A program made the position numbers and the translations under genes. This document shows, piece by piece, positions 1 through 56,795 of a stretch of 64,000 nucleotides of DNA; position 1 is the stretch's first letter, and each line of letters opens with the position of its first letter. Source of the stretch: Squalus acanthias (taxonomy: Eukaryota); NCBI GenBank assembly GCA_030390025.1, contig CM059431.1, positions 141,114,001-141,178,000 of the forward strand. Direction: 5' to 3'. The notes under the pieces were generated by a model. The model was not told the origin of the DNA. It made no database searches and worked only from the letters and a program-made list of their open reading frames with translations.

Positions 1-671
1 ACAATAGTATAAAACTGCCCGATATAGTGAACAGTAAAATGATGGATTTCCTTCTGTTCTCCAATTCTGGATCCCTCTAATTTTCACTCCCGTGACCCCG
101 GAGTCCCCTGCGGGCTCTGCTGGCCACTAAAATACGTTGAACGGTTAAATAATTAAACAAGGCGATTAAAGTAAAAGGAAGCCAGAGGACCCAGGCGCTG
201 TGAAACCAGACGGATGCTATGACTGGAGGTGAGGTAAAAAAAAGCGACACTTGACCCGCAGCCCCACTGCACCTTACTAATTATTTGCTCAGATTCAAAT
301 GCAAACAAAACGGGGATGTCCTTTAATACAATCAGGACCTTGAACGCTGTTATAACCGCGGCCGCAGTTCTCCCGGTGCAATACTTGTCTTTAAACTTCT
401 GGCAGCAGATAACTACACATCGCTCAAATGTGAAGGAGACGCTGAACCAAACAGACACATCGAGGTTGATAGCAGTGATGTATAGAATTAACTTACACAC
501 GGGAGTGTGGGACAGGAATGAAAGTGGAAAGTGATAACCAAAAATATAATAACTATTACATTGATGATAATGACAAATAGATCTGCTGTTGCCATGGCCA
601 CCATGTAGACAGATATACACTTGGAAAGGCCGCAGTTTTCTCGGTAGAGAATAAAATTGTCAACAAGTTCG
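1..671 (-). pseudogene. GPR139/GPR142-like class A GPCR copy A, exon 2 (disabled; runs off the left edge)
   Basis: Acceptor ctcttacag|CG AAC at 672/671. Pieces in shifting frames: ANLLTI, NCGLSKCISVYMVAMATADL, TVCK-like TPVCKL..SFTFERC, WLPFTLIALFN..RILVASRARRGLR..ENRRKSIILLFTISGSF. Frameshifts near 655, 552 and in the A-run 236-243; in-frame TAG at 77-79. Confidence 0.9.
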
Positions 672-1114
672 CTGTAAGAGAGAGAGAGGAGAGAAATAAT
701 GTTCCAGTGTCTGATTAAAATATATATGGAGAGGCCTGTGGAGAGCATTTTACTCCATTCAATGTGATTATCAACACGGAGCAGTGTGAGAACAGGATTA
801 GTATTGGAGCCATTAACTGGGAAACCCACCCACACATTTTAATGCGCTGCTGCAGCGCTCACTCTGCACAGGGGGACAAGACGGTCCGGAAATCCGGTAA
901 AATCCTTGTGTTGGTGCTTTATAAAGCATTGCAACATCAGTGAGGTTATTGGATTAAGGGAAGCGTGGGAAGTGTGCATAGGAGGTTCACGAGTTGGCTC
1001 CAGTCACTACCGACTATTTAATACTTACATATAGTAAACACGTTACCTGATCTAACAGGCTGAACAGGGTTACAATTAACACCGATTAACAATAAACAGG
1101 TTAGAATGGCTCAC

Positions 1115-1184
1115 CGGAGAAACCGACGGCTGCGAGAATCGGGTAGTAAATCTCTTTGATCAGCAGAATAGTTGAGTGACCCAT
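1115..1184 (-). pseudogene. GPCR copy A, exon 1 (70 nt, MGHSTILLIKEIYYPILAAVGFS, phase-1 donor)
   Basis: ATG at 1184, donor G|gtgag at 1115/1114; same length and phase as exon 1 of copies B and C; 443-nt intron 672-1114. Confidence 0.9.
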
Positions 1185-1256
1185 TTTCTGTGAGAATGGA
1201 TGAATTATGTGTCGGAGCTGAAAGACTCTGACTGGCGCACGGCTGAGGCAATGGCA

Positions 1257-1334
1257 GGGAACCTATATTTATCCACAAAACAGTCCTGCAGGGAGTCAAT
1301 CAGGTTAAATCATAATTAGCGTTAGTTACAATCA
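1257..1334 (-). promoter_or_regulatory. Putative proximal promoter of GPCR copy A
   Basis: 21 bp (tgtggataaatataggttccc) identical to 55283-55303 of copy C; TGATTGTAACTAACGC motif 150 nt upstream of ATG has counterparts in B and C. Function inferred. Confidence 0.45.
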
Positions 1335-1599
1335 TTTTACCAATATACTCAGGTAAATTGATTTTTTTCTGATACGTCAGATTAAAGAAATAGTTGAAGT
1401 TGTTAATGGAAAATTTAATAAAAAAACAAAATTAAAGCATTCTTTACAATCCGAGATTTGAAACTCCCACTGCTGCTGCTGCCTCTATTACTACAGGAGC
1501 ATTGAAGGCAGCTCCCCTAGCATTACACGTCCTGACCCTCTGCTTGACTCAGTTTTATTGCTCAAACTAATCCAGAACAGGCGGTTTTCGTGATGACCA

Positions 1600-2530
1600 C
1601 AGTCATGCAGCATTAAAGGTAACCGTGTTCCTCTGGCAGTTGTAGTAAACCTACACTTCCACTAGAGGTGAGAGTGTTCCTTCTGTGCTTGTGAAAGCCT
1701 TACACTTAAACTGGAGGCGCCCGTGCTTCTCCGTTAATAAAAGTAGCCCCTACACTTACACTGGAGATGAGGGTGCTCCTTCAATGCTAGTGGTGAACTA
1801 CACTGATACTCGAGGTGACCTTTCCCCTCAGGTGCTAGCGATACCCCTGCAAATAGACTAGTGCTGGACGTAAACGTTCTGTTAAAGTAGTTCCCCACAC
1901 TTACACCAGCAGTGCTCCTGCTTCTACTGTACGAGTGGTACCCCTACATATACTATAGTGTTGACCGTGCGCCAGCAGTAGTAGTGGTAACCCCACACTT
2001 ACAATGGTACTGATAGTGCTCTTCTAGTATTAGTGGTAACCTGCAATTACACACGAGCTGACCGTCCTCGACTGGTACTAGTGTTACCGCTACACATACA
2101 CTAGAGGTGGCCATGCTCCTCCTGTACTATTGTTAATCCTATACTTATATTAGAGGTGAACACGCTCCTCCCTGTCTAGTGGTACCCTACACTTATACTA
2201 GGTGTGACCATGTTTCCCGATACTAGTGGTACTCACACACTTGCACTGATACTGACATTTTTCTTCTGGTATTAGTGGCAGCGTACATTTACACAAGAGC
2301 TGACCGTCCTCCTCCTGTACTAGCAGTACCCCTCCACTAACATTAATGTTGAACGTGGTCGTACGCTATTCGTGGTCCCCTACACTTAAACCAGCGGTGA
2401 TCCTGCTTTTAAGGTACTTGTCGTAAACCGAAACATACATTAGATGTGACCGTGCTCCTCTGGTAATAGGGTGCCTACCGTTACACTAGAGGTGACAATG
2501 CTCTTCCTCTGCTATTGATGATTATATTCC
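1600..2530 (-). repeat. Degenerate 47-49 bp minisatellite, reverse-complement of arrays at 50660-51800 and 53510-54930
   Basis: Recurring ccctacacttacactagaggtgaccgtgctcctcctgtactagtggta-like units. Confidence 0.85.
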
Positions 2531-2704
2531 TATTGGAGGCCCCACTCTTGTTGCACTGACGGAGACCAATCTACTGCACGACTGGCGATGAATCTGCTTT
2601 TGCAGCATTGGTGTTATACCAAGTACTCTAACACAAGGACTGACCAGTTTTGCAGCAGCAGTGATAGACCTACTGCTGGGATACAATAAAGAATATAAGA
2701 ATAT

Positions 2705-5970: not shown

Positions 5971-6010
5971 TTGAACACCTCTTTTAGGCCCCTAGAGCAA
6001 GCTGAAAAAC

Positions 6011-6760
6011 TAATGGCCCAAAAATTAGTGAGGGCGCCTTCGTGCGAGGGTAAGGCTTCCCCGCGATCTCTCACTGCGCGCTGGCTATTTCATTCCCAGC
6101 TCGCACGAACTTGATGTTCTGGACAGCAGCTGTGCAGGGCTTCCGTATCCCACAGGCGCAGTTAATTCTTGCGAGCTGTGGGATCACGTGACTCAGTTAG
6201 AGCCAATGGCAGCACACCATCTTTCATTCATAGCTTTCACAAAAGTGCTGTGAAAGCTATGAATCTATACCCCCCAAAAGAACAGCTAAACCTCAATTAA
6301 ATTTATTAAAAAAAACCTTACATTCATAAAATAAGTATAGTTAAATAAATTAACCATTTTAAACAAAAAATTAAATTTAAAAAAAAATTTAAAATCTTTT
6401 AAAAAGTTATAAAAATAAACTTACCTTTCTTTAAAGTCTCTAAAAAAGATGTACTTGTTGAAAAAAATTCAAAATAATACTTAATTAACTACTTACCTTG
6501 TTAAAAGAGGGTCTTACGCCTCCTTTCTTTATGTGCAAAATCTTCCATACTTACCTGCGCGTTCAAAGCAATAAGTGCACTGCGTGCGCGCAGCTTGTAG
6601 CGCGCACGCGGTTCACCTAGGAACCGCCCCCTTTTGAAATCACCACGTGCCGGTTTTCAGCGCATGCGCAGTGCATGCAGAAAACCGGCAATTGGCGACA
6701 GAATACGCGAGAGTGCACAGTGCGTACTCTCGCGTAGCAAAACTATTTTTTGGGCCATTA
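6011..6760. mobile_element. MITE / non-autonomous DNA transposon
   Basis: Terminal inverted repeats taatggcccaaaaattagt / actattttttgggccatta; CpG-rich arms around an AT-rich core. Confidence 0.7.
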
Positions 6761-8361
6761 CAAATAAACAGAAATAGGTCTGTGCAACTGAAAGATGCGC
6801 GGTCAGTCTAAAAATTACTGTTTGCGATATTTACAGATTAAATCGTAATATTTAGAATGGAATCCCTCCGTACAATTGTAGTGGTGGTTTTGACCTTTCT
6901 ATCCTGAATGACAGGCGAAGTTGCTTGAAATGAGTGAGTTACTGATTCCGATACCAACAAAAACAGGGCTAATGTTAATCTTCTTTCAATGGAGAGTAAA
7001 AACGGGTGGAGTTTCAAACGAGCGGAAGCCCAGAACCCGCACGTTTACAGTCCGACCGGTTTAGTTAAATTACCTCTCTTGGGTCTTATCAAATACTTTC
7101 ATGACACGCCCGTGCCATGTTGCTCCTTGTGAATAGCTTAGTTGACTCGCTGGGAGATTCCTACCAAATTACCCAGCACCGTTCCAATTCCACAACCTGC
7201 CTGAAGAGCCCAATCATTTCCCTGTAGATTCCGGTGTCTCTGTGAGCTGGAGGTCACCGCATGTGATCTTAGAGGAAGAATGCAACCGGTGACATTCCTG
7301 TTCTTTAGAGGAGGTGTTCACCAATTTAAAAGGAAATAACATTTTCCAATCAGGCGTCTACTGAGTGCAAGGCCTCTCCCCAGGCTTTCAGTCTAGAATC
7401 GGAAATCCGCTACAATTCCTTATAATCCGTGACAGATCCGTGAAATTGGATACAGGGATATGGGCACAACAGGTGCATCAGCTAACGTCTGCATTTCCTA
7501 TTCCATAGATCAGTCCGTTTAAGCAGCTGATTGCTACGGGGCACAGAGTAGGAATGTCGCAGGTTCTAGACTGGCGTAGCATTCGTTGGGCGGGGGAACA
7601 GGAAAATTATTACCGCTCTTGCATGCAATTTTAACCTTACCTGACAGTCGGGAAACTGATGAAATCGGGTGAACGCGGATTTTGTACCACCTCCTGCTTT
7701 TATTCAAATTGAAGTCAACGTACAAAAATGTAGAGGGGGCGGGGGTGGGGAGGATGTAAAACTGGCTTTCCACCCGATCCTGTCAGTTTCCCTCCCGGCC
7801 TGTTATGTTAAAATTACTCCAGTGCGAGGGGTGTAAGTGTGTGGGAGGGGGGGGGGGGCGGGGGGCGGGGCTGGAGTCCAGGACCAGGTATGAGTGATCA
7901 CTCTCCGGACAGGCTGAGAAATGTACAGTTGACACCCAACCGATTGCCCGACTGATCGCCGCCACCAACAAGTAATGAAGCTGATCAGAGGTGAAAAGTG
8001 AGGCGGGGGGAATTACAGGAGGTGTAGAAAGAAAATAAGTTGGTCTTAGGTCAAAAAATAAAAGAGCAGTAATTAGTTTATTTCAATCGTTTAAGCAACA
8101 CATTCATTACTGCATCAAAGATCAGCAAGGTTGTTCACTACAGAAAGAACAACGAATCAGAGCTGGAATCTGTTGTATTATAGGGTGATTTTCCCAATCT
8201 AATCCGTTGTGACAGGTCTCAAATTTCTCTTTATTCTATTCATTTATGAGCTGGTTTTTGAGGAAATGCTCTTAGCTTCACACGTGTTGTTCGATAGAAA
8301 AAATGACGTCATGCATGAACTGGATTGTGACGCCACTGCAGCAAATAGTCTTCTTGCTAAT

Positions 8362-9900
8362 CATAGAATCACGAATGATACAGCACAGAAAGAGGCCATT
8401 CGGCCCATCGCGCCTATGCCGACTTCCTGAAAGAACGATCCAATTACACCCACTGCCCTGCTCATTCCCCATAGCCCTGCAATTTTTCCGCTTTAATTTT
8501 ATATGCACTTACTTTTTGAAAGTTAATTTTGAATCTGCTTCCACCGTCCTTTCAGGCAGTGTGTTCCAGATCATAACAACTCGCTGTGTAAATACATTTC
8601 TCCTCATCTGCCCTCATGCACTTTTGCCAATTACAATGGCCCATAATTTACGGCCACGCATGTACCGCGTTTTCGCGCGAGACGCGCATGCGTGACTATC
8701 CGGATCCTGCGATCTTTCAAAAATTTTCTTGACAGATCCAATACGTTCCCAGGATAAGGGCATCGCGGCCCGAGAGTTGTGCTATTTGTCCAACTTCTGC
8801 CGAGTGAATGCCCGTGAAATTCTCATCCCTGGTAAAACCTGCGTAAGAGATTTAAAAAATGTTAATTTAATATCCAATCATTCATAAATAAAAATAACCT
8901 GCAATAAGGTAAACTTATTTTAGCACCTTTAAAACATTTAAATTTATTTTTCAAAAAACTAAGTTTTTATTTCGAATATTTAATGAAATGGCATTTTAAA
9001 TATATAATGTTGTTTTATTTAGTAATTTGATGTGCAGTTGTATTTTTGGGGTATTCCCATTCATGCTTGTGGGGATTCCGTACAGAAGGAATACCCAAGA
9101 GCATGAATGGTGATTCCTTTATTTTATTGGTTGGGCAAGCTCACGAGATCCCAGGTGCGCTTGAGAATCACGTGCACCCCTAGGATACCTGGGCCTCTAC
9201 CGCGGCAACCCCGAGAGGCGCAGGACCTCGAATCTCCGGACTTCCTGGACCACCAGGTACGCGGGCATTTTATTTGCGAATCGGAGACAATTCCCCGCTG
9301 GAAGCCCCTGACCACAAATTCAGGGCCATTAAATCTGTGTCCTCTGGTTAACTACTCTTCTGTCAGTGGAAATAGCTTTCCGAAATTGATCTATCAAAAC
9401 GCCTCATAATATTGAACACCTCTATTAAATCTCCCCTTATCCTTCCCTGCTTTAAGGAGAATAATCTCAGCTTCTATAGGCTCTTGAAGTAACTGAAACT
9501 GCTCACCTCTGCTAACATTCGAGTAAATCTCGTCTGCATCATCCCCAAGGTTTTGATATCCTTTCTAAAGTGTGGTATGCCGAATTGGGCACAATGCTCC
9601 ACTGGAGGCCTAATCAGTGATTTACAAAGATTGAGCAAAGCTTCCGTCCTTTTGGACACTATGCCTCTTTTTAGAAAGCAATTTATCCCGTATGCTGTTA
9701 ACAGATATATCAGCTTGTCCTGCCACCATCAAAGTTGAGTGTCCCTGAACCCCCCGGTCTCTCGGTCCCTGTACTGCCTTCCAGTACATAAGGTCGCAGA
9801 AATGAATATTTTATAAAGATTCTCCTCGTCCCACGTTCAAAAATACAACTTTTCACACTTCTCTGCATTAAATTTCATCTGTAATGTGTCCCATTGTAAG
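8362..9900 (-). mobile_element. CR1-type LINE 3' part, interrupted by MITE 8635-9330
   Basis: Tail catagaatc..gaggccattcggccc; ORF pieces LIRPPVEHCAQFGIPHFRKD and QMKFNAEKCE. Confidence 0.8.
8635..9330. mobile_element. MITE inserted in CR1
   Basis: TIR aatggcccataattt / aaattcagggccatt; CR1 sequence resumes on both sides. Confidence 0.7.
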
Positions 9901-9945
9901 ATCTCCATTCGTACCATTGAAACACGTTCTATAACGGTGGTGACA

Positions 9946-10020
9946 TCAGACTGTTGTCGGATGGACCGTGATGATTGGTGTTTGAGACATGTTGTCCTGA
10001 TCAGTAGGCTCATGGGAAGG
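9946..10020 (-). pseudogene. MS4A copy 1, putative last coding exon (PSHEPTDQDNMSQTPIITVHPTTV*)
   Basis: Acceptor tccttcccag|, phase 0, ends TGA 9948-9946; P/S/T-rich tail is plausible but not diagnostic. Confidence 0.5.
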
Positions 10021-11035
10021 CTGGGAAGGAATTCATAAAAGTTGGAAAACAGTAAATAAATAAACAAATAAATAAATAAGCAAACATCCAAGCTGAGGTA
10101 AATGCTAATGATTTCCTCCACGTAATGTGTGAAATTCCTCGATAAATGAGAATCGCAGTATACGTTATAATGGGCTTGAAATTACTGTCTATTTAATGGT
10201 GAGGTTAATGGTACTCACTATTATTTATTTGCAAATCAGACAGCTACTTCCAGACAGCACAGATGCGCAGTTCTACTCGAAAACCTGGAGTTGCTGTCCG
10301 AGACCCACCGCTATTCGTCAGGCTGCTCGAGAATGGCATATCGTTGTCTGTCTCCCCATTCAAATGTACTGAGCTGCGTGAATTTCCTGCACTTGCGAGA
10401 TAGAGCGGGACTAATCTCGCCACAGAAAGCTAGGGAATGTCCATATCAGTCAAAGTAGATTTTTTTGAAAGAGTAACAATTTTTAATTGCTGCCAAACAA
10501 CCTCTCCGGCATTGATAATTAATTATTACGAATGCGGAATCTTATTCCTACAGATTTTAGTTGTTGACCGAGATTATTTTAAAAATTTAAAAATGTTAAT
10601 GACTTAGTTTATCTTTCTTTCTGTCTCTATTTACTCTCTCTGAATCCAATCTTCCTGTCCCTTTCTCTTTTTCGGTTTCAATACCCGATTTGACATTGAA
10701 TTCACTATTCTAACTTACAATTCCCACACCAGAATCTGCGTTGTTCGTACTTCATTCCTTCACTATGATTGGTGAAGGAGATACACAGTTGCTTACTCGC
10801 GGCAACGTTTGAATCTCTGACTGCAGCTTCCAGTACAAAAGGTCATCGAAATTAAATGGTCATGGCAAGTCTAACGAATGGCGGACGCCGTTCGTCCGCT
10901 GGCTACTGGAAATCGTGGCGCCAAATTCCTCATTGCAATACCTTTGGGAGGTTAATACCAATTTCTGAATATTTAGAGTCAATATTCAGCAGAGCCAGGA
11001 ATATTGATTGTTAATTTGGTCTTGCAAATACAAAC

Positions 11036-11161
11036 CTTATTGACTTGTATCATTGAATGGCACCAACAATCCTTGCCACCGGAAATGGAAACGACAATTG
11101 ATATCAACATCTCCAATATTGCCAGCAGGTAGAGAACGAGTACGAGACTGAAACGGTATAT
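11036..11161 (-). pseudogene. MS4A copy 1, TM4 exon (IYRFSLVLVLYLLAILEMLISIVVSISGGKDCWCHSMIQVNK)
   Basis: Acceptor gatccacag| at 11162/11161 (alternative tttcag| at 11147), donor AAG|gtttgt; LE-x-x-I and following Cys pair typical of MS4A TM4. Confidence 0.75.
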
Positions 11162-12145
11162 CTGTGGATCAGTGGCAAGAACATGTTCAGGGCAATCAGA
11201 AATAAGACGAATTCTGGCAACGAGAAATGTCGTTCATACAGCGACAGCACAATTCAAGGAGAATCTGAAATCGAAGCTCACAAATTAGCCAATTTTGGGA
11301 CAACGAAAAATATTGGGAGTGTAATTGATTTCGACCAGTAGTGCTAAACGGGCATCGGAAGTCCGTTTTACGCTCCTCCCGATTTTCCTCTACAATTCAA
11401 TTTAATGGAAAAGAAAATATAGTTGGCTTAAAAGAGAAACAGAAGAATTGAGATTTATTTCAATCTAATTTGTAGAAGAAAATGTTTTTATATGTTGGAT
11501 TCTGCAGTGCAATTTGAATAGTGGGAAACTGCACTGATCAGGGGTAGAGTCTAAAGAACAGATAATGAAATCCCGGCTAGACAGTCATTAGGAACACAGG
11601 AACATAGGAACAGGAGTAGTTCATTCAGCCCCTCGAAACTGTTCCGCCATTCAGTTAGATTATTTCTGATCTCTAGCATAATTCCATCTAGCCGCCTTGG
11701 TTCCGAATAGCGTTAATACTCTTGCCTAGTAAAGGTGCAACGAGAGCAATTGTTTGGAATTACAACTGGGCCTAGTGGGTAAAACACATTGGTGTAGATG
11801 TTAAAAAAGGCTGCCGATTCGTTTTCCTACCAACGAAGTCCAATTTAATCCCAGTGAGTGTAAAACAGTCAATATAGTTTAAGAAATCAATAGAATTAAA
11901 TATCGGGCCGGCCGTCTAACGGGCGACCGATGCACTACCGCTTGTGTTACCGCCCTGCAATTTTCCAATTTCATCCCCAAGAACTACCCAATTATACGGC
12001 TTACCACATATCTAAACAATCCCAGTTAAAGGTTACTTTGTGAATATGTCAATAATCAGCTCAGCAAACAGAATGTCAAATTAGAGCAGTATTCCGTGCA
12101 ATGGACTGTTTTGTTTAAATGGAGAGTCATTGTGGAGATACTTAC

Positions 12146-12202
12146 AAGGCCTGTAGATGATGTCTTTCCCACAATGCACCACAGGCTCCCAGAAAGTATA
12201 AA
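12146..12202 (-). pseudogene. MS4A copy 1, 57-nt exon (FILSGSLWCIVGKTSSTGL)
   Basis: tttcccag| ... |gtaagt, phase 0/0; matches the short F/Y-I-I-S-G-S-L exon of MS4A genes. Confidence 0.9.
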
Positions 12203-12269
12203 CTGGGAAATAAATGAGAAATATCAATTACACTTGATGAAGCCTGTGTATAATTATTGGAAGACAGAA

Positions 12270-13119: not shown

Positions 13120-13230
13120 CGACAGTCCGCCACACCAGTGTGTTCTGTGTGCTCCCGGCATCGGTATCGGACTCAGAATTAAAGTCGTCCAGAATAGTAT
13201 AACAAATATTCCCAACACAATCTGAGTAAA
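13120..13230 (-). pseudogene. MS4A copy 1, TM1/TM2 exon (FTQIVLGIFVILFWTTLILSPIPMPGAHRTHWCGGLS)
   Basis: tctcttttag| ... |gtgagt, 111 nt, phase 0/0, open. Confidence 0.9.
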
Positions 13231-45549: not shown

Positions 45550-46360
45550 AATTAAATAATTGTTGTGTTCCCTTAGGTTTCTCTGTTTCTAATCAAAGAA
45601 ATACTGTGTTTCCCTGACATTCCGTGCATTCTATTTGTTATTAAACAGTAACTATGTCCCCCTGTGTCCTCCTTCTATCTACATGGTTATTATGTTCCAT
45701 GAGGCCAGTTTCTAATTAAACCGTTACTGTGTTCTCCTAAAATTCCTGTTCTCTATTTATAATTAAATAGATAGGTTATTTCCTTAAGTTCCCCCGTTCT
45801 CTGTTCCTAATCCGCGTGTTCCCCATTTTTAATTAAACAGTTACTATGTTCACCTATCCCCCCAATCCCCATTTATAATTATACAGTTACTGTGTTCCAC
45901 TACATTCAACTTTATTCTATTCCTAATTAAAGAGTTACTGTGTTCCACTACATTCAACTTTATTCTTATTCTAATTAAACAGTTACTGTGTTCACCTAAA
46001 TCCCCCTCTTCCCCATTTATAATTAAACAGATACTGAGTTCTCCTATATCCACCGTTCCCCATTTATAATCATCAGTTACTGTGGTCCCCTATATATTCC
46101 GTTCCCCATTTATAATTGAATAGTTACTGTGTTCCCCTATATTCCACTATTCCCCATTTATATTTAAACAGTTACTGTATTCTCCTAAGTTTCACTGTAC
46201 TTTATTTGTAATATAACAATGACTGTTTTCCACTAAAGTCACCTTTATTCTACTTCTAATTAACAGTTGGCGTATTCTTCTAAATTCGCCTGCTCTGTAT
46301 TTGGAATTAAAGAGTTACTGTATTATCGGGAATTCCCCTTTGTTCCCTATTTTCCGTTGT
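45550..46360 (+). repeat. Degenerate ~46-48 bp minisatellite
   Basis: aattaaacagttactgtgtt recurs at 45831, 45877, 45925, 45973, 46021 and beyond. Confidence 0.85.
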
Positions 46361-46369
46361 GTCCTCTCC

Positions 46370-47900
46370 GTGCTCATTTTGTCCACGAACATGCTCTCCC
46401 GACCCTATTCCCACTAAACTGCTGATCACCCATCTTTCCTTTCTAGCCCTCATGCCAGCTGATATTATGAACTGTTCCCTCAGCTCTGGCACTGTCCGCT
46501 CCCTTTCAAATCTGCCGTCATCGCCCCTCCTAACAAATCCACCTTTGAACCCTCTGTCTTTGCAAACTACCGCCCCATCTCCAACCGCCTATTCCTCTCC
46601 TTGACCATATAGTCGTCTCCCAGATCTTTCTCACAACTCCATGTTTGAATTTTTACCGTCAAGTTTCTGCCCTTGTCACTGCACTGAAACCGTCCTTATT
46701 GAAGTCAAACGTCATCTTCTTATGGGACTGTCATTATGGTGCATTTTGCGTTCTCGTTCTTCACGATTGACGACACCATCCTCCTTCAACGCCACTCCTC
46801 CACTTTCCAGCTGAGTGAACTGCAGTCACCTGGTTCCGCTCCTCCCTATGCAGTCAAAGCCAGAGAATATCCTGCAATTTGTTATATTCGAGCTTTCACA
46901 CCGTTACCTCTGGTGTCCACGAAGGTTATATTATTTCGCCTGTCTATCTATATTCTGCCCCTTAGCAACATCATCCATATATACAATGACGACGCATCTC
47001 TCTAACTTAGTAACAGCTCTCTCCACACCTCCACTGATTCTGTGATATCAAAGTATTGACTGACATGCAGTCCTGGATGAGTGAACATTTACTTTAATTA
47101 AAGAGTGGGCAGGCTCACTCCATTGTCTTTGGTCCCAGCGACAAACTCCGTTCTCTCGCCACCGGCTCCATCTCCCTCCCTGGCCAATGTCTCAGGCTGA
47201 AACTGACTGTTCACATTCTCGGCCTCCCAATTGACCCTGAGTTGACCTTCTGATCCCAGATCGTCTCCATCACAAAGACCGTGTAACCTCACCCAGCTCC
47301 GCCCCTTCTGCCGCTAAACCCCTCCAGGCTTTGCCGCCTCCAGACCTGGTTTATCCAAAGCTATCCTGTCCCGACTCCCATCTTCCACCCTCATTAAACT
47401 GTGCAGCTCACCTTAAACTCTGCTGCCCAGAACCGAACTCGCACCAAGTCCCATTCACACATCACCCTCTGTTCGGTGAAGTACATCGGATCCTGTTCCA
47501 GCATCGTCTCGATTTTAAAATTCTCATTCTCCTGTTCAAATCCCCCCCATGGCCTCGCCGCTCACAATCTGTGAAACCTCCTCCAGCCCTACGATCCTCC
47601 GAGAACTGTGCATTGTCCATTCTCTGGCCTCTTGTGTATCCTCCAGTTCCTTCGCCCCATCACTGGAGTTCGTGCCTTTAGCTGTCTAGGACCTAAACTC
47701 TGGAATCCCCTCCCGAAGCCTCTCCATTTCTCTCCTTTAAGACTCTCCTTTAGAACCTACCTCTGATCACGCTTGTGGTCACCTGTCCTCATGGCTCCTT
47801 CTTTCGTTCGCTATCATATTTTGTCTGATTGCGCTCATGTAACATGCCTTGGGGTATTTTAATAAGTTAAATGCGCTACACAAATGAACGTAGTTGTTGT
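46370..47900 (+). mobile_element. L2-type LINE, degenerate RT and 3' end
   Basis: TCSPDPIPTKLL, aactaccgccccatctccaac (NYRPISN), RLDFKILILLFKS, tail ending gttgttgttg. Confidence 0.85.
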
Positions 47901-49589
47901 TGTAATGAACAGTCCATCCTGGCCAGTCCCGTCACCCACACATATCTTAATTGTTCGGTCCATTTACAATGATTAGTGGGGTCGGGCTGTGGTGATGATT
48001 ATCTTGTCATAAACAGTCCATCCTGGCGAATCCCGTCACTCACATGTATCTAGGTGGTTCGGTCCATTTACAATGATCCGTGGGGTTGGGTTGGACTGAT
48101 TCCATCAGTGGTACTGAACCGCTGATCCTCGCAATCTTCTGGTTCAACACAGGAAAGGAATCTGACCCCGATTCACAACGCGTTCATCTGCAATTAGCAC
48201 TGGGGCAGAGAGTGTCACAGCTTAGTGACTGTTCTCAACTAATGGGCCGTCAACTGCTCCCTACAGACTTCACCATGTCAAGCTGGACTCAATCTGCGTT
48301 GTACAGATGATGGAAAGTATTGGCTCCGAAATTATTGCTGCAATGTTAAAAACAACAGGAAGGAATGTGACGTCTCACTTTAATATCCCACTGTCCAGAT
48401 TATCTACTAGCTGAGGGAGAATAAACCCGTGATTGATCACCGAAGCAACGATATCCCTGACCATAAATGGGAGCGTGATGGGAAGGATCCAGATGTGGAG
48501 AACACGCCACCCTTTGGATGGTGCCTGCTCCAGCTCGCGGTGTTATGTTGAATATCCGACTGTTCTGCATGAAAAGCGCACGCCCTTCCTTTGCCAGAGG
48601 GAAAGAATGAGTTTACACTAAAACCCCGCCTGGTGGGTAGAAAACCGAGAGCCCCCGTTTATTGGTCAATCACATGTAGTGTGGAAACGGGCCCAATTCA
48701 CTCACTAGAACCCAGTCCACTGGCACTGGATCCATAACACTTAGAGCAAAGCACCGTGAGGTCTCCGTCAATCCAAACAATAACATTAAATGTGCATTGA
48801 GTGGGCGGCGGTGGGGCTGGGAGGATGTGGTGAGTGGACCAAAGAAAGGCTCTCAACTACCAATCTTACAATCCAATGGCAACTGAAAGGCAGGCGATGA
48901 TCAGTGACCTCCCCGGAGCAGCCAAGGTAACATGAGTCAGTGCCCCATGTAACAGTGCGCGAAAATAACCATGTTCACCATTGCCAATACCGGAATACCG
49001 GAACTTATTTCATTGATCACCAGATAACTGGATAGCAATGTGCATGAGGTTCCTCAATATACTTCAGCCCACCCCATCCTCTCCCCGACAGGCCTTCCTT
49101 CAATAAGACCGACATGTCTGAAATCAGTGGATGACTCACATGACGCATATTATCTGCTTTTTGCCCCTGTTATTACCCACATTAAGGACCGCTTTCTGGC
49201 CCCTGGGTTACATTACAGATTAAGCCAAACGGAGCGGCTTCAATCTCTGCACTTTCTTCTGAAAGGGGAAATAACCCAACACCAAATATAAGGAAGTGCC
49301 GCCTCAGTCTACAAGAAACGTGCAGGCCAGCATCAGTCAATCAGCTCACAACCGCCTATTGGAAAAGGCCCACTGAGGAGAGGGGAGAGTCTGGGATAAA
49401 AGGGTCTATAATTGTAGGAATCGGCAGGGGCACCGGTGGTTATCAAAATAGGAAAGCACACAGAATGGTTTCCTTTCATTGTTAGCACTATTTGGATAAG
49501 GGGAAATAATTTGGGCAAGGTGGGGTGTCCCGGTGAGATAGACGTATTACTAAAAGGATAGGGAGTCACTGGAGAAGTTTCAACAAATA

Positions 49590-50060
49590 TTTACAATGTT
49601 TATGCCAGAACTGAGAGTTTACAACTATCTAGAAAATTTGAACAGGCTGGGCTTTTTTCTCAAGTAAAGAGAAGGCTGATGGGTGACCTGATAGAGGTCT
49701 TTAAACTTATGAAGGGCTTTTGATAGGGGAGATGTAGAGAAGATGTTTCCACTTGCTGGAGTATCCGAAACATTGGATATTCCCTAATAAATCCAACAGG
49801 GAATTCAGGAGAAACTTCCTTAGTCAGATAGTTGTGAGCATGTAGATTCCTACAACATGGAATAAATGAGGCAAATTGCTTAGATGCATTTAAGGGGATG
49901 CTAGATAAATACATGAGGGAGAAAGGAAAAACATGATATGCTGATAGGTTTACATGTGGTAGGGTGGGAGGTGATTCGTCTGGATCATAACCAGCGGCCT
50001 GGATCAGTATCAGTGGGGCCGAATGGCCGGTTTCTGTGCTGTAGATTCTATGTAATTGTT
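49590..50060 (+). mobile_element. CR1-type LINE 3' fragment
   Basis: agaaggctgatgggtgacctgatagaggtctttaaa (RRL-GDLIEVFK); tail gggccgaatggcc..ttctatgt. Confidence 0.75.
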
Positions 50061-50165
50061 TGTAAAAATTGAATCAGAATGTTTTCCGACGGGAGGCTCG
50101 GTAGTTGTGGAGGAGAGCTCCATGATAGTGTGACTGGTTTATTTTTCTGATGTCTCTGTTCTTAG

Positions 50166-50319
50166 TTCTGTTCCGGTGCCCCCTCTGACCTGCAGTCACA
50201 GATATCTGACAGCGGGCACTGGGCTCTCCTGGGCGACTTCTTCCTGAAGCGAGTCTCCAGCTGCCTGCTTGCCCTGCTGCTCCTCATCATTTCCCTCTTC
50301 CTGCTCTCCATAGACACAG
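50166..50319 (+). other. Orphan candidate exon encoding a signal-peptide/TM-like segment
   Basis: ctctgttcttag| ... ACA G|gtaaag; open frame FCSGAPSDLQSQISDSGHWALLGDFFLKRVSSCLLALLLLIISLFLLSIDT; no ATG in frame. Confidence 0.5.
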
Positions 50320-50659
50320 GTAAAGGGGAAGGTCCAAAATATCCCCTCAGCGTGATGGAGAAACCGTTCACAAGCTGGAGATAGTAAAAGGCCACAAACA
50401 TGGACTCTTCAGAAAGAAAGTTTCCCCAAGTACACAATCCTAATAAAGTGCATCCAATAGGAATCGCTCCTGACAACCGCCACCGAGCAACAAGCAGCAT
50501 CGCTTTGGTGGGGGTTTGTGAGTCGGAATACGGACGATAAAGAGGAAATTCCAATAGTTTTAAATCCCATTTTCATCCAGCGGGCAGAGCGGGTGCTGGA
50601 AATTTCGCACCATCGGAAAATCAGTGCCAGACATTTACAACACACATTCCGCATGGATC

Positions 50660-51800
50660 AACTCTTGTGTAAGTGTTGTGTATCACCAGTACCGGAGGAG
50701 CGCAGTTACATCTGGAGGAAGTGCAGTGGTTGCACTAGTACTGCAGGAGTGCGGTCACCTCTAGTGTAAAGGTACTGGTGCGATTAATACCGGAGTAGCA
50801 CGGTCACTTCTCATGTAAGTGTAGGTGCCACTAGTGCAGGAGGAGAATGCTCAAATCTAGTGTAAGTGTAGGTGCCACTAGTACAGGAGGTGAACGCTCT
50901 CATCTAGTGTAATTGACATGTACCACCAGTACCAGAGGAGCCCGGTCACCTCTAGTGGATCTGTAGGGTACCACTAGTACAGGAGGAGCGCGCTCACATC
51001 TAGTGCAAGTGTATGTGCCACTAGTACAGGAGGAGAACGCTCACATCTAGTGTAAGTGTAGGTGCCACTAGTACAGGAGGAGAACGCTCACATCTAGTTT
51101 AAGTGTGGGTGCCACTAGTACAGGAGGAGAATGCTCACATCTAGTGTAAGTGTAGGTGCCACTAGTACAGGAGGAGAACGGTCACATCTAGTGTAAGTGT
51201 AGGTGCAAGTAGTACAGGAGGAGAATGCTCACATCTAGTGTAGGTGACACTAGTACAGGAGGAGAACGCTCACATCTAGTGTAGGTGACACTAGTACAGG
51301 AGGAGCTCGCACACATCTCGTGTAAGTGTAGGTGCCACTAGTACCGGAGGAGCGTGCTCACATGTAGTGTAAGTGTAGATGCCACTAGTACAGGAGGAGA
51401 ACGCTCACATCTAGTGTAAGTGTAGGTGCCACTAGTACAGGAGGAGCGTGCTAACATGTAGTGTAAGTGTAGATGCCACTAGTACAGGAGGAGCTCGCAT
51501 CACATCTAGTGTAAGTGTAGGTGCCACTACTACAGGAGGAAAACGCTCACATCTAGTGTAAGTGTAAGTGCCACCAGTACAGGAGGGGCGCGATCACATC
51601 TAGTGTAAGTGTAGGTGCCACTAGTACAGGAGGGGCGCGATCACATCTAGTGTAAGTGTAGGTGCCACTAGTACAGGAGGGGCGCGCTCACATCTAGCGT
51701 AAGTGTAGGTGCCATTAGTACAGGAGGAGCTCGCTCACATCGAGTGTAAGTGTAGAGTACAACTAGTAACGGAGGCGAACGCTCATATTTAGTGTAAGGA
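50660..51800 (+). repeat. 47-bp minisatellite (actagtacaggaggagaacgctcacatctagtgtaagtgtaggtgcc)
   Basis: About 20 well-conserved units. Confidence 0.95.
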
Positions 51801-52019
51801 GAGGGCTTGAGTCTGTGTCTAGGGAACGGGGTTTGTGGTGAGAACCGAACACTATGGCTTCGGTCTTCCCAACATTTAGTTGGAGGAAAGTTCTGCTTAT
51901 CCAATGCTTGATGTCGGATAAGCAGCGTGACAATTTAGAGGCAGTGGAGGTGTCGGGGGATGTGCTGGTGATTTACAGCGTACATGTTCCCCATCCGAAG
52001 TCACATCATCAGTTTGCAA

Positions 52020-53010
52020 ATATACACCACTCACGACCCCTCCACCTTCTCTAAATTAACACACTGCTTGTCCGACATCCAATACTGGATGAGCAGAAAT
52101 TGCATCCAATTAAATATATGAAAGACCAAAGCGATTTACTTCGGTCCCCACCAGGAACACCATTCCCTAGCACCGGACTCCATCTCTCAACGCGGCAAAT
52201 GACTGAGGTTGATCCAGACTGTTTGTAACCTTGGTGTCATTTTTGATCCCGAGATGAGCTTCCGACTACATAACCGCACCATCACCAAGACCGCCTATTA
52301 CCACCTCTAGAACATCCCCCGTCCAAGCCCCTGTTTCAGCTCATCTCCGGCTGAAACAAGCCTTTCTTACCTCCAGACGTATCTATTCCAACGCACTCCT
52401 GGCCGGTCTCCCACGTTGTAATTTCTGTTAACTTGAGGTCATCCAAAACGCTGCTGCCCCTGTCCTAACTTGCACTAAGCCCCATTCGCACATTATCCCC
52501 GTGCTCGCTGACCAACATTGGCTCCTGGTTAAGAAACGCCTCGATTTTAAAATTCTCATCCTTGTTCTCAAATCCCTACATGGCCTGGCCCCTCCCTGTC
52601 TCTGTAATCCCCTCCAGCCCCACAAATCTCCGAAATATCTGCGCTTATCCAAATCCAGCCTCTTGAGCTTCGCTGATTTTAATCTCTCAAATATTGGCGG
52701 CCGTGTCTTCAGCTGCTAAGGCCCTAAGCGCTGGAAATTCCCTCCCTAAAGCTCGCCGCCTCTCTACTTTTCTTTCCTCCTTAACGACACTCCTTAAAAC
52801 CTGCCTCTTTGATCAAGATTTTGGTTTTCTAAACTAACATCTTCCTATGTGTCTTGGTGTCAATTCTTGTTTGATAATGCTCCTGTGAAGCGCATTGGGA
52901 GGTTTTACGAACTTACGAACCACCAACTTTCCTCCTTACTTGCTGCACCTGCATACTAACCTTTTACGACATTAAAAGCACCATAAAAATTCAAGTTGTT
53001 GTTGTTGTTA
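52020..53010 (+). mobile_element. L2-type LINE 3' part (preceded by an opposite-orientation L2-like piece at about 51800-51980)
   Basis: LADQHWLLVKKRLDFKILILVLKSLHGLAP; tail (gtt)n at about 52995-53008. Confidence 0.85.
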
Positions 53011-53058
53011 AGTGTAAGGCTACCACGAGTACTGTAGATTCAGTATGATCATTAGTGT

Positions 53059-53497
53059 ATAGGCCAAAAATTCGATGCTTCCAGGGTGAGGATGCACTCT
53101 TTAGGCGTGCTAAAGTGCCAGTTTCTTGCATGCACCGCGCATGCGCGGGAAACCGGAACTTCCGGTCTGGTGAAGGGGGCGGTTCATAGGTTGAAGCGCG
53201 TGCGCGGTAGAGGCTGCGCGCACGCAGCAAACTCAGGTTTTTTTTCAGGTTTCTACGGGAGGGTAAGTATTGTAGAACCTGCGCTTTTACAGAGGAGGTC
53301 TTCCTGTCACGTGATCCCAGGGGACGCATCGCAATAACTGCGCCCCTGGGACACGCAAGCACTGCGCGCCGGCAGTTGGGAGAGGCCCAGGAGCTGAAGT
53401 TCCCGTGGGCCCAGAGGTCAACCGCAGGCACGGTAGGTAAGTGCGCGCGCGAACCTTACCCCCGGGGCAAGCCAGAGAGGCGAATTTCAGGACCTAT
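53059..53497. mobile_element. MITE inside the minisatellite edge
   Basis: TIR ataggccaaaaattcg / cgaatttcaggacctat; CpG-rich interior shares motifs with 6011-6760 and 8635-9330. Confidence 0.7.
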
Positions 53498-53509
53498 GTT
53501 TATGGCAGC

Positions 53510-54930
53510 TGGTTAACCACTAGTGTAAGTGTAAGGGTAACAGTCGTACCGGAAGAGCAGGTACACGTCTAGTGTATGTGTAGGGTACCACAGGTACGGA
53601 AGAAGCACGGTCAAAACTAGTGTAAATTTAGGAGTACGACTAGTACCGGAGAAGCACTATTATCTCTAATGTAATTGTAGGTGTACCAGTAATACAAGAG
53701 TAACTTGCTGATACCTTGCTTAACCGTGACGGTGCTACAAGTACCGGAGGAGCACGGTTACCTCTTGATTAATTTTAGGGGTAACACTAGTGTAGGAGGT
53801 GCACTGTCAACAGTAGTGTTATTGTAGGGGTACCACTAGTGTAGGAAGAGCCCGGTCACCTCTAGTGTTAGTGTAGGGGCACCACTAGTACAGGAGGAGC
53901 ACGGTCACCTCTCGAGTGTAAGTGTAGGGGCACCACTAATACAGGAGGAGAATGGTCAACGCTAGTTTAAGTGTAGGGGCACCACTAGTGCAGAAGGAGC
54001 ACGGGCAACGCTAGTATTAGGGTAAAGGTACCACGAGTATAAGAGGAGCCGGGTCACATCTAGTGTAAGTATAGTGACACCACTAGTACAGGAGGAGCCC
54101 AGTCATCTCTAGTGCAATTATAGGGGCACCACCATTACAGAAGGAGTCCGGTCACCTCTAGTGTAAATGTTGGGGTAACACTGGGACAGGAGGGACACGG
54201 TCACCTCTAGTGTAAGTGTAGGGGTAACACTGGGACAGGAGGGGCACCGTCAAATGTAGTGTAAGTGTAGGGGTAACACTGGGACAGGAGAGGCACCGTC
54301 ACATCTAGTGTAAGTGTAGGGGTAACACTGGGACAGGATGGACACGGTCACATCTAGTGTAAGTGTAGGGGTAACACTGGGACAGGTGGAGTCTCATCAA
54401 ATGTCAGTTTAGGGGTAGTACTGGGACAGGAGGAGCACGGTCACATCTAGTGTCAGTGTAGGGATAGCACTCGGAAAGGAGGGGCATGATCACATCTTGT
54501 GTCAGTGTAGAGGTAACACTGGGACAGGAGGGACACGGTCACATCTAGTGTCAGTGGAGGGGTAACCCTGGGACAGGAGCGGCACGGTCACATCTACTGT
54601 CAGTGGAGTGGTGCACTGGGACAGGAGGGGCACGGTCACATCTAATGTAAGTGCAGAGATACTACTGTACACGAGGAGCACACGCACATCTAGTGTATGA
54701 GGGGTATACCACTAGCATCGGAGGAGTAGCACTGTCAATAGTAGTGTTAGTGTTGTGCTACCACTATTACCATAGCAGCACGTTCAACATCAGTGTACAC
54801 GGTACTAGTACCTCAGGAGTTCGGACACATGTAGCCTAAGATTATGTTGCCAGTATTACAGGAGGAGAACTGTCCCTCTAATCTAAATGTAGGGTACAAC
54901 TAGTACTGGAGGAGCCCTGTCACCTCTAAT
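53510..54930 (+). repeat. 49-bp minisatellite upstream of GPCR copy C
   Basis: Units such as actagtacaggaggagcacggtcacctctagtgtaagtgtaggggcacc and acactgggacaggaggg..cggtcacatctagtgtaagtgtaggggta. Confidence 0.92.
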
Positions 54931-55225
54931 GCTGCCAGACTGGGCTCTTCACCAGTATTGCAGGATTTGATTCACTGCCTGTTCTGGAGGAGTTGGTGCA
55001 CTAGGAGTGAATCAAGGGCAGGGTCATGACAATTGTTGCCTGGGGAGCTGCATTCACCAGGCCTGTAGGACTAGGGTCAGCACCAGGACTGGGAGATTGC
55101 ACTTCCTACTCGTAAACAATTTTCAAATGCTGTATTTTGTAAAACTATCCAACAACAATTTCACAGATTTCTCTTAATCTGACGTATCGGATAAAAAAAC
55201 AACTTACCTGAGTCTATTTGTTAAA

Positions 55226-55303
55226 TGACTGTAACTAATGCTAATTATGATTTAACCTGATGGACTCCCTGGAGGTTTGATGTGTGGATAAATATAGGTT
55301 CCC
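55226..55303 (+). promoter_or_regulatory. Putative proximal promoter of GPCR copy C
   Basis: TGACTGTAACTAATGC at 55226-55241 followed by TAATTA; gataaatatagg at 55287-55298. Confidence 0.45.
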
Positions 55304-55373
55304 TTCCATTGCCCCAGCCGTGCGCCAGTCAGAGTCATTTTGCTCCAACAGAATTCATCCATTCTCACAGAGA

Positions 55374-55443
55374 ATGGGGCAATCAACTATTCTGCTGATC
55401 AAACAGATTTACTACCCGATTCTCGCGGCCGTCGCTGTCCCTG
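55374..55443 (+). pseudogene. GPCR copy C, exon 1 (MGQSTILLIKQIYYPILAAVAVP, phase 1)
   Basis: 70 nt, donor G|gtgag; 447-nt intron 55444-55890. Confidence 0.9.
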
Positions 55444-55890
55444 GTGAGCCATTTTAACCTGCTTGTTGTTAATCGGGATTAACTGTATCCATGTACATAG
55501 AGCCTGTTTGATAAGGTAACGGGTTTTCTAGATGGCAGCATTGCACAGTCGGTAGTGAGTGGAACCAAATCGTGAACCGCGTGTCCTCACTTACCGCATT
55601 CCCCTTAATCCAATAACCTCACTGATGTTACAATGTTCTTTGAAGCTACAACACATGGATTTAAGCGGATTTCCGGACCGTCTTATCACCCCGTGCAGAG
55701 TGAGCGCTGCAGCAGCTCATTAAAATGTGTGGGTGGTTTTCCCAGGTAATGGCTCCAATACTAATCCTGTTCTCACACTGCTCCGTGTTGATAATCACAC
55801 TGAATGGAGTAAAATGCTCTCCACAGGGATCTCCATATATATTTCAATCAGACACTTGAACATTATTTTTTTCCTCTCTCTTTCTTACAG

Positions 55891-56795
55891 CGAACTTGGT
55901 GGCAATGGTGATTCTTTCCCGGGGAAACTGCGGTCTTTCCAAGTGTATCTATGTCTACATGGTGGCCATGGCAACAGCAGATCTACCGGTCTTGATCATC
56001 AATGTAATCGTGTATCATATTTTCAATTATCACTTTCCACTTTCATTCCGGTTCCACACTCCCGTCTGTAAGTTCATTCTATACATGACTGTTGTCACCC
56101 TCGATTTGTCTGTTTGGTTCACCGTCTCCTTCACATTTGATCGATTTGTAGTTATCCAATGACAGAAGTTTAAAGCAAAGTATTGCACCGAGAAAACTGC
56201 GGCCGCGATTATAACAGCGTTCTCAGTCCTAATCTTTTTAAAGGACATCCCTGTATTGTTTGCATTTGAAGCTGAACAAATAATTAACAGGGTGCAGTGT
56301 GGCTGCCGGAACAGTGTGGCTTTTGTTTCCTCACCTCCAGGTGTAGCGTACGTCTGGTTTCACAGCGCCTGGGGCGTTTAGCTTCCTTTTACTTTAATTG
56401 TCTTGTTTAATTATTTGACAGTCAGACGTATTTTAGTGGCCAGCAGAGCCCGCAGGGGACTCCGGGGTCACAGAAGTGAAAATCTGAGAGATACAGAGAC
56501 AGAGAACCGAAGGAAATCCATCATTTTACTGTTCACTGTATCGGGCAGTTTTATATTGCTGTGGCTGACAACTGCCGTGAGTTTTGTAACTACCAGACTG
56601 ACAAACCCCACTTATTACCGAGGTGACCGCACAGACCCTGGATATATCGCCACTGAAACCGGAACAATGTTGAAGTTTTTGAGTTGCTTTCAAAACCCAT
56701 GTATTTATGTAGCGACCCAGACGAAATTCAGAGAAGAGCTGAAGAAGGTGGTGAAATCCCCCTGGGCACTCATTCTGAGATTAGGTAGAAAATGA
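55891..56795 (+). pseudogene. GPR139/GPR142-like GPCR copy C, exon 2 (two internal stops)
   Basis: tttcttacag|CG AAC; single frame to TGA 56795 (spliced 975 nt) with TGA 56160-56162 and TAG 56379-56381; TFDRF, FILLWL, QNPCIYVATQTKFREEL motifs. Confidence 0.92.

Follow-up and report, generated by a model that had tools for sequence, protein, structure and literature searches.

A probable decayed part of a birth-and-death cluster of shark GPCRs, with satellite-led cassettes and an inverted MS4A-like gene

We analysed a 64,000-nucleotide stretch of Squalus acanthias DNA (hereafter, the window), which is probably a decayed part of a cluster of shark GPCRs that evolves by birth and death, in which satellite-led cassettes were copied and an MS4A-like gene was inverted once. 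A first-pass annotation had described two mirror-image arms, each consisting of an MS4A copy, a minisatellite and a GPCR. The parts that it named were found, but the arms did not pair module for module. Most likely, the MS4A-like genes came to lie between the GPCRs through one old local rearrangement and not as members of a repeating two-family unit.

Results

GPCR copies in the window

Three GPCR pseudogenes were detected by Pfam 7tm_1 and tblastn at about 1.2 kb (copy A, minus strand), 41 kb (copy B, plus strand) and 55.4-56.8 kb (copy C, plus strand), where the first-pass annotation had put GPCRs at 1.2 kb, 41 kb and, together with another satellite, 50.7-56.8 kb. Copy A has a 70-nt first coding exon with a GT donor (1115-1184, minus strand) and a main coding exon (1-671, minus strand), which was located by tblastn, has an acceptor, contains frame changes and is cut at its 3' end by the window edge. 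The first coding exon of copy B (41078-41147, plus strand) was also located by tblastn, and its main exon (41897-42789, plus strand) contains one in-frame stop at 42367-42369. In copy C, the first coding exon (55374-55443) and the main exon (55891-56795), both on the plus strand, were found, and the latter has two in-frame stops (56160-56162 and 56379-56381). All three copies are thus damaged, as had been claimed. The genes are of class A (rhodopsin-like), since all five pieces matched Pfam PF00001; two of them alone were above the curated cutoff, and one piece of the main exon of copy A was under it (7tm_1, E 7.5e-4). The best identities of A, B and C were 80-82%, and each copy was nested among shark proteins in the tree.

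Alignment of the region upstream of copy A (1185-1599, minus strand) revealed a block common to A, B and C, which may be a TATA-like promoter or, alternatively, a branch point and acceptor. Between A and C, the upstream distance was 0.12 in the proximal part and 0.41 in the distal part.

The shark GPCR family and its ligand pocket

A, B and C belong to an expanded, very large and little-studied shark family of class A GPCRs. There were 735 relatives, which bore out the earlier view of birth and death, here within a very large GPCR family of sharks; the 120 relatives listed were all from sharks (10 species) and were concentrated on few contigs. The database name "probable GPR139", carried by 112 of these 120 matches, is an automatic best-hit label. 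R3.50, N7.49 and Y7.53 are invariant across the family. When a 47-sequence family profile was searched against PDB, GPR139 was the top match (E 1.5e-18; next best, 9e-12), as it was for a single family protein, and the family proteins retrieved in the protein set examined included no true GPR139 or GPR142 orthologue.

The GPR139 pocket residues given in the relevant part of PMC5430874 were mapped onto 95 relatives via the alignment to the structure match. Among the Trp/Phe pocket residues, only W241 (W6.48; 93/95) and partly H187 (44/95) were kept; F109 (6/95), N271 (2/95) and R244 (0/95) were largely or entirely absent, and E108 was present in one of the 95. The previously proposed link to aromatic amino-acid sensing consequently failed. 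Pocket-facing columns, whose positions were taken from general class A numbering, were more variable (entropy 1.66, 26 columns) than the 136 other membrane columns (0.94, p 5e-5) and than 59 outer non-pocket columns (1.23, p 0.016) in a test treating columns as independent. The missing GPR139 residues and the hypervariable pocket fit a diversified sensing family, not GPR139 itself. Because the pocket is variable, intact members most likely form a diversified G-protein-coupled set that senses peptides or small ligands of various kinds; to that extent, the chemosensory role raised in the first-pass annotation is plausible as varied-ligand sensing.

Searches of the available literature found no paper on this family or on MS4A-GPCR linkage in sharks, and supplementary gene-family tables may still mention the expansion. 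The main text of two shark genome papers contained no occurrence of GPR or of MS4A.

Minisatellites and the cassette

Tandem arrays were present at 1.6-2.5 and 32.7-40.7 kb, as had been claimed, and at 50.7-51.8 and 53.5-54.9 kb, within the stretch given earlier for another satellite plus GPCR. S_A (1600-2540, minus strand) has a 49-bp period and is decayed, S_B (32682-40682, plus strand) has a 26-bp period and about 309 copies, and S_C (53510-54935, plus strand) has a 49-bp period. S_X (50650-51800, plus strand; 47-bp period) shares the family and polarity of the others but is not immediately followed by a GPCR. Homology and gene polarity hold for all four arrays: same-strand scores were 158-997, opposite-strand scores 30-66 and shuffle maxima 32-43, the shuffle controls preserving base composition only and not repetitiveness. 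Three of the four stop about 400-440 nt upstream of a GPCR ATG. In the remaining 51.9 kb, the satellite core motif had two matches, both adjoining S_C. These results show that the copied unit is a cassette of an oriented minisatellite, a short conserved upstream block, the 70-nt first coding exon, an intron and the main exon.

A 48-bp array at 45.7-46.3 kb was rejected as a cassette satellite, being unrelated to these arrays. An immunoglobulin switch-region-like repeat was also rejected, as AGCT was under the shuffle mean in all four arrays; WGCW clearly exceeded the shuffle mean in S_A only.

Upstream of S_C, a CpG-rich segment (53046-53510, plus strand) is homologous to left blocks at 6.0-6.8 kb. 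One block in the A/C unit (6000-6192, minus strand) showed 64% identity to 53306-53510 (score 78, shuffle maximum 28). The other, a GC/CpG-rich block (6519-6770, minus strand), showed 73% identity to 53046-53298 and ends near a GT donor-like site; it is possibly a distal promoter and non-coding exon.

The satellite was also observed in the sevengill shark Heptranchias, in which the model XP_067833181.1 (P0090) starts with 16-residue repeats resembling translated S_A, S_X and S_C. In sense orientation, the Smith-Waterman scores of this repeat against the three arrays were 69-87 (shuffle maxima 35-43), and no match to S_B was obtained. A second Heptranchias model (P0145) on the same scaffold has an identical N-terminal extension, so that the link in the second species, seen in 2 of 19 N-terminal extensions, counts as one observation.

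MS4A-like relics

The left MS4A-like copy lies on the minus strand. Its 5' region (15216-16724) aligns blockwise to 27221-31180 and is followed by an N-terminal exon (15037-15215; 179 nt, one in-frame stop). Next come a 111-nt, phase-0 hydrophobic exon with canonical splice sites (13120-13230; candidate first membrane helix), a 57-nt phase-0 exon with canonical splice sites (12146-12202), which we take to be an MS4A exon from its anatomy, a 117-nt, phase-0 hydrophobic exon with a weak donor (11045-11161; candidate fourth membrane helix) and a putative last exon (9946-10020) with an AG acceptor and 24 codons before a stop. The lengths of 111, 57 and 117 nt are all multiples of three, and these exons have AG/GT borders. 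Two exons are strongly hydrophobic (KD19 2.45 and 2.89) and one moderately so (1.02). A search for an exon encoding the third membrane helix found none in this copy.

The right copy (27221-32297, plus strand) is a 5' fragment only. Its N-terminal exon carries stops, the splice sites have decayed, and the fragment breaks off inside the first membrane exon at 32297. It is interrupted by a LINE insertion (28509-30720, minus strand) with a 705-codon open reverse-transcriptase frame (Pfam RVT_1, E 8.5e-32). At the junction of the fragment with S_B lies a short dispersed repeat (32299-32675), which is presumably SINE-like.

Phase-0 membrane exons, including one of 57 nt, are an MS4A family trait, and the exon-junction motifs resemble those of MS4A genes. 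Given this exon anatomy and these motifs, MS4A is a candidate identity. Pfam searches with single exons and 76 open frames gave no MS4A/CD20-like (PF04103) match, and neither a pyrin domain nor any other Pfam family was above cutoff in the MS4A-like regions. HMMER over 1.84 billion cluster representatives gave no hit, word-seeded searches gave 12 and 4 candidates with none at E<=10, and PDB and Atlas searches with the exons gave no MS4A match. These blanks are weak because each query was one decayed exon of 20-66 residues; in two of them, sensitivity was further reduced by about 18 codons of intronic sequence.

In other searches, Rfam had no match on 6500-64000, Pfam had none above cutoff on 39 other open frames of the window, and a metagenome scan yielded 74 pattern matches, none of which was confirmed.

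Inverted structure, pairing and ages

The inversion centre, earlier placed at about 24.6 kb, was set near 24.66 kb by an inner inverted block, the left arm of which (22920-23499, minus strand) is 75% identical to the right arm (25820-26320, plus strand). Farther out, 16.7-13.2 kb and 27.2-32.3 kb form an inverted pair with 75% identity (1403/1863 aligned bases), and by this alignment the left and right MS4A-like copies evidently derive from one inverted duplication. Of the two MS4A copies claimed, the inverted pair stood, with the right one being the 5' fragment that stops at 32297. In the left arm, the MS4A-like gene and the array are 7.4 kb apart. Immediately upstream of cassette C, there is no MS4A-like gene. 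Besides dispersed repeats, left 9800-13172 had no match in the right arm. Left 6771-13172 and right 42790-53046 have no unique sequence in common, the only hits between them being two short repeats.

The intron of A aligned to that of C over 385 of 442 bases (87%), and the A/B and B/C introns were at shuffle level (A/B score 29, shuffle maximum 34). The arrays of A and C both have the 49-bp period and that of B the 26-bp period. In the tree, a 100/100 branch split B from A and C, and either side of it holds genes of sawshark, sevengill and horn shark; a clade of A and B was rejected (p-AU 0.00096), and A and C as sister genes were disfavoured (p-AU 0.042). As judged from sequence comparison, left copy A pairs with far-right C and not with mirror-position B, which belongs to a different, older subfamily. 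Neither the mirror of modules nor the idea that the GPCRs in mirror position are mutual duplicates survived these comparisons.

The distance of the MS4A-like pair was 0.29 +/- 0.02 and that of the inner block 0.30 +/- 0.03. For A and C, dS was 0.27 +/- 0.05, and the distances were 0.41 +/- 0.06 in the distal flank, 0.22 +/- 0.04 in the 5' half of the intron and 0.34 +/- 0.05 in the CpG block. Going by the whole-intron distance of 0.14, A/C would be clearly the younger of the two pairs; we dropped this reading because constraint lowers the value in the 3' half of the intron (0.07), whereas the range at neutral sites is 0.22-0.41. As the A/C divergence overlaps that of the MS4A-like pair, one inversion may have carried both. 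Duplication as a unit thus failed as a repeating module and may hold through the A/C pairing.

Discussion

The interpretation offered in the first-pass annotation was supported as to birth and death and not as to a repeating module of MS4A, satellite and GPCR. We propose the following history. Cassettes would be multiplied, shuffled and deleted by unequal recombination, to which dispersed repeats and the homology between arrays probably contribute, and many copies would die. An MS4A-like gene in this zone was copied once, head to head, around the centre at 24.66 kb, and the chance that this inversion also carried the A/C cassette is about even. The right MS4A-like copy would have lost its 3' half through later deletions or an insertion, and the same events would have placed older-subfamily cassette B beside the remaining fragment. 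The mirror look would be due to this position of B.

Could the window instead be a true two-family cluster, in which MS4A and GPCR genes are interleaved, repeatedly co-duplicated and kept together because they share chemosensory or immune expression? With A and C taken as the pair, the order and polarity of both arms do make one inverted unit (inner block, MS4A-like gene, CpG block, 49-bp array, GPCR), the ages of the two pairs overlap, and MS4As are chemoreceptors in necklace neurons, in rodents only according to the part of PMC7776563 concerned. We nevertheless regard such a cluster as unlikely: there is one MS4A-like duplication only, both copies of which are broken, left 6771-13172 and right 42790-53046 share no unique sequence, and A and C are not sister genes in the tree. 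Furthermore, on one Heptranchias scaffold, 9 of 10 consecutive accessions (XP_067833181-190) are family GPCRs, which is weak evidence because numbering need not follow position. Just as unlikely, in our estimate, is that the minisatellite is a functional cis-element (an enhancer array, silencing or a gene-choice platform) whose place and polarity have been kept since before the main shark split. Related arrays that precede A, B and C by nearly equal distances, even though the introns of A and C no longer align to that of B, squalomorph and galeomorph genes in both subfamilies and the related upstream repeat in Heptranchias would all agree with it. However, the periods (26, 47 and 49 bp) and lengths (0.9-8 kb) differ widely, and every copy in the window is a pseudogene. 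Both S_A and S_C are preceded by a CpG-rich block that has donor-like sites, which suggests that the array could simply be intronic, and tandem arrays renew themselves by slippage, so that passive inheritance accounts for their persistence.

Less likely still, the "MS4A" exons would belong to another small four-pass family (e.g. TMEM176-like) or be partly chance open frames. The blanks in the Pfam, cluster-representative, word-seeded, PDB and Atlas searches and the missing third membrane exon speak for this; those blanks are weak, and against it stands a series of five exons in order, which have AG acceptors and consistent phases, with three strong donors among them and strong hydrophobicity in two, together with a 57-nt phase-0 exon and junction motifs that fit MS4A genes. 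Least likely is the combined picture of a large, undescribed GPR139/142-derived sensory or immune repertoire with an oriented, pre-split regulatory minisatellite before every gene and with MS4A-type receptors interleaved and co-regulated in the same chromosome region. A decayed corner of a GPCR cluster with one MS4A-like inversion remains our preferred reading.

The family has a hypervariable pocket, numbers hundreds of members in databases and did not appear in the literature searched; it may thus represent receptor diversity, sensory or immune, that has gone unrecognised. Sharks are reported to have small OR, TAAR and V1R repertoires, with 5-8 genes each in the catshark (PMC6368271). The value belongs to the GPCR family; the window contributes three dead copies, and it provides evidence for the satellite-gene link across both deep subfamilies and a second species. 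The satellite-led cassette is a concrete handle on how the family expands. The MS4A mirror in the window calls for caution, as it is probably a one-off.

The closest relatives are the shark "probable G-protein coupled receptor 139" models of the same family, such as Pristiophorus P0002, Heptranchias XP_067836107.1 and Heterodontus XP_067864716.1, with up to 81% identity over the B query. Their N-terminus maps to the short first coding exon of the window copies; unlike these RefSeq/UniRef models, A, B and C are pseudogenes. Among solved structures, human GPR139 (PDB 7VUG, 9M42) and GPR142 are the best match, and W6.48 is common to both sides, whereas most amino-acid-binding residues are absent in the shark family. 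Human GPR139 and GPR142 are single-copy genes, in contrast to the many tandem copies per shark genome.

The small phase-0 membrane exons and short terminal exons of vertebrate MS4A genes (CD20/MS4A1, FceRI-beta/MS4A2) would resemble those of the left relic, but both relics are broken and one helix exon is missing. Sharks do have MS4A genes, namely dogfish MS4Ax1-3, whose expression is broad or intestinal, the relevant section of PMC2826416 making no mention of the olfactory organ.

The OR, TAAR, V1R and V2R clusters resemble the present one in being large tandem families with pseudogenes, lineage-specific subclades and a variable pocket. The catshark survey, in the part concerned, covers V2R, OR, ORA, TAAR and TAS1R and does not mention a shark GPR139-like family (PMC6368271). 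The shark GPCR family is none of OR, TAAR, V1R and V2R. As to its mode of expansion, beta-satellite/zinc-finger cassettes occur in human 19p12, where a satellite block was co-duplicated with each tandem gene. The genes and repeats are different there, and the shark array is distinguished by its near-fixed distance and polarity before the ATG.

Results

Three GPCR pseudogenes, A, B, and C, of the family labelled "probable GPR139" in databases were found in the window. Copy A, on the minus strand, has its first coding exon at 1184-1115 and a main exon that runs from 671 to the edge of the window, with frame changes. Copies B (41078-41147 and 41897-42789) and C (55374-55443 and 55891-56795) lie on the plus strand and carry a single in-frame stop and two stops, respectively. 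All five GPCR pieces matched Pfam 7tm_1, and dN/dS between the copies was 0.41-0.50, which is consistent with constraint followed by decay. The MS4A-like relics are also broken; hence, the statement of the first-pass annotation that every copy in the window is damaged was borne out.

Each pseudogene belongs to a cassette consisting of an oriented minisatellite array, an upstream block, and the GPCR gene. The arrays are S_A (1600-2540, minus strand as copy A, 49-bp period), S_B (32682-40682, plus, 26-bp period), S_C (53510-54935, plus, 49-bp period), and S_X (50650-51800, plus, 47-bp period), which has no GPCR directly behind it. They form a single family and keep one orientation with respect to the genes: same-strand alignments scored 158-997, opposite-strand alignments 30-66, and shuffle maxima were 32-43. 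A 26-mer profile matched S_B 162 times, S_C 3 times, S_A twice, S_X zero times, and nothing elsewhere. In three arrays, the distance from the array end to the ATG was about 400-440 nt. A satellite-like single unit was observed at 53014, near the orphan S_X, suggesting that a repeat insertion separated S_X from the S_C region or that a cassette was deleted at S_X. Just upstream of S_X (50162-50657), open frames of 70-136 codons overlap one another and include Cys-rich stretches; they gave no match in a Pfam search and are possibly a transposon remnant. A fifth array, a 48-bp AT-rich minisatellite at 45700-46330, is unrelated to the cassette satellite.

A, B, and C have the upstream block in common, at a distance of about 75-140 nt from the ATG. 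It may be either a TATA-type promoter or a branch point and acceptor fed by a CpG-rich block. This CpG-rich block was found upstream of both S_A (6519-6770, minus) and S_C (53046-53510, plus) with 73% identity, and contains motifs that we take to be NRF1-like and ETS-like, followed by donor-like sites. It is possibly a distal promoter with a non-coding exon, in which case the array would be intronic. Within the A/C intron, the 3' half (55663-55890 and 672-899) showed a distance of 0.07, versus 0.27 at synonymous sites, which could reflect either constraint on an intronic element or a tract of gene conversion.

N-terminal extensions were observed in 19 of 187 fetched proteins. Those of two Heptranchias models on the same scaffold, P0090 (XP_067833181.1) and P0145, were identical and made of 16-residue repeats, which matched translated S_A, S_X, and S_C in sense (69-87, versus shuffle maxima of 35-43); no match to translated S_B was found. 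We read this extension as the product of a gene prediction that, in a second species, ran into an array of this satellite family lying upstream.

Between A and B lies an inverted pair of MS4A-like relics. The left copy contains five ordered candidate exons on the minus strand (15215-15037, 13230-13120, 12202-12146, 11161-11045, and 10020-9946) that have AG acceptors and agree in phase. Two of them are strongly hydrophobic, and the N-terminal exon contains a stop. A third-helix exon was looked for in this copy and not found. MS4A genes are matched by the phase-0 exon of 57 nt and by the motifs at the exon junctions. Library and database searches of these regions gave no MS4A match. We consider the MS4A label highly probable; of the copies proposed for the two arms, the right one is only partial. 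It is 75% identical to the left copy (1403/1863) and ends within the first membrane exon, where it meets a short dispersed repeat adjoining S_B. A LINE in it (28603-30720, minus) retains a 705-codon open frame over the reverse-transcriptase domain and thus probably inserted recently, when the gene was already dead. At 27246-27279 (plus), the right copy also has a 28-nt candidate for a first coding exon; it has a GT donor and a phase that fits the N-terminal exon of the left copy, where the counterpart start and donor have decayed. It starts with Met-Gly and has Thr at position 6, a pattern resembling an N-myristoylation signal. The distance of the inner inverted block (0.30 ± 0.03) equals that of the MS4A-like pair (0.29 ± 0.02), so the head-to-head duplication, with its centre near 24.66 kb, is genuine.

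The mirror proposed in the first-pass annotation did not extend to the GPCR genes as equal modules: the intron of A is 87% identical to that of C and unalignable to that of B, and an A+B clade was rejected (p-AU 0.00096). In a midpoint-rooted tree of 30 rows, 27 of them relatives picked from a 95-relative set so that both clades were represented, B was set apart from A and C by a 100/100 branch, and both sides held squalomorph and galeomorph genes. The A+C clade was weakly rejected (p-AU 0.042), since C falls with genes of the sawshark.

Comparisons outside the window rest on protein records and papers. The closest proteins mark the window as shark DNA. With the first half of the copy B main exon as the query, 735 proteins were obtained at E<=0.001. 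The best 120 of these all came from 10 shark species (horn shark 34, sawshark 33, sevengill 28, two catsharks 15, and five others 10), and 112 were named "probable or putative GPR139". Among these matches, 24/34 from horn shark lay on a single 74.9-Mb contig, and one contig per catshark species held 7/7 and 8/8. Several models (P0026, P0075, P0105, and P0123) were chimeric with LINE-derived sequence; hence, annotation-based counts of intact genes are probably inflated.

Discussion

A/C neutral distances (dS 0.27 ± 0.05; flanks 0.22-0.41) overlap that of the MS4A-like pair, which speaks against A/C being the younger of the two, and a single old inversion may have carried the MS4A-like gene and the A/C cassette together. 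B's 20-kb block would then reflect a later event, either an insertion into the right arm or a deletion from the left one. The gene and the cassette are not joined by unique sequence on both arms, and similar ages are common in a large family; we therefore give the inversion an even chance. Whether carried jointly or separately, the arrangement is one event. The first-pass observation was thus confirmed in part and its interpretation supported in part: the GPCR, satellite, and inverted MS4A-like parts of the proposed cluster stand, whereas a repeating two-family module is not supported. Among these pseudogenes, the MS4A mirror most likely arose by local accident; of greater note is the satellite-led cassette, whose GPCRs form a large shark family that has gone unstudied. 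Birth and death of such cassettes would follow from recombination between arrays and repeats.

Human MS4A genes adjoin olfactory receptor genes. The MS4A genes map to 11q12 (PMC11663944), and two papers describe broad or intestinal expression of dogfish MS4A genes (PMC2826416) and chemoreception in necklace neurons demonstrated in rodents only (PMC7776563). Literature searches found no dedicated paper on the shark "GPR139" family; GPR and MS4A do not occur in the main text of PMC10620051 and PMC13100897, and GPR139 appears only in the reference list of PMC7270403. The accessible sections of a catshark chemosensory survey list no such family (PMC6368271). Those of a vertebrate rhodopsin-like GPCR survey describe additional subtypes related to GPR139/142 in coelacanth, gar, and other fishes, with sharks unmentioned in that account (PMC6504862).

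The 95-relative set was made from the first 120 hits by removing models, most of them over-long or chimeric, and adding two cluster members. In the Pristiophorus protein P0002 and its relatives, P6.50 is replaced by Thr in 93/95 and P7.50 in 70/95, and the third intracellular loop is basic and conserved; signalling may differ from that of typical class A receptors. The closest solved structure to a 47-sequence family profile was human GPR139 (E 1.5e-18). Pocket-facing columns were more variable (entropy 1.66) than other membrane columns (0.94, p 5e-5) and outer non-pocket columns (1.23, p 0.016). Of the human GPR139 ligand residues, taken from PMC5430874, W241 was retained in 93/95 relatives and H187 in 44/95, whereas F109 (6/95), N271 (2/95), and R244 (0/95) were mostly lost. 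Taken together, these sequence comparisons suggest that the family derives from the GPR139/142 lineage or lies near it, yet differs from GPR139 itself. It resembles a receptor set with diversified ligands, whose intact members would sense diverse ligands.
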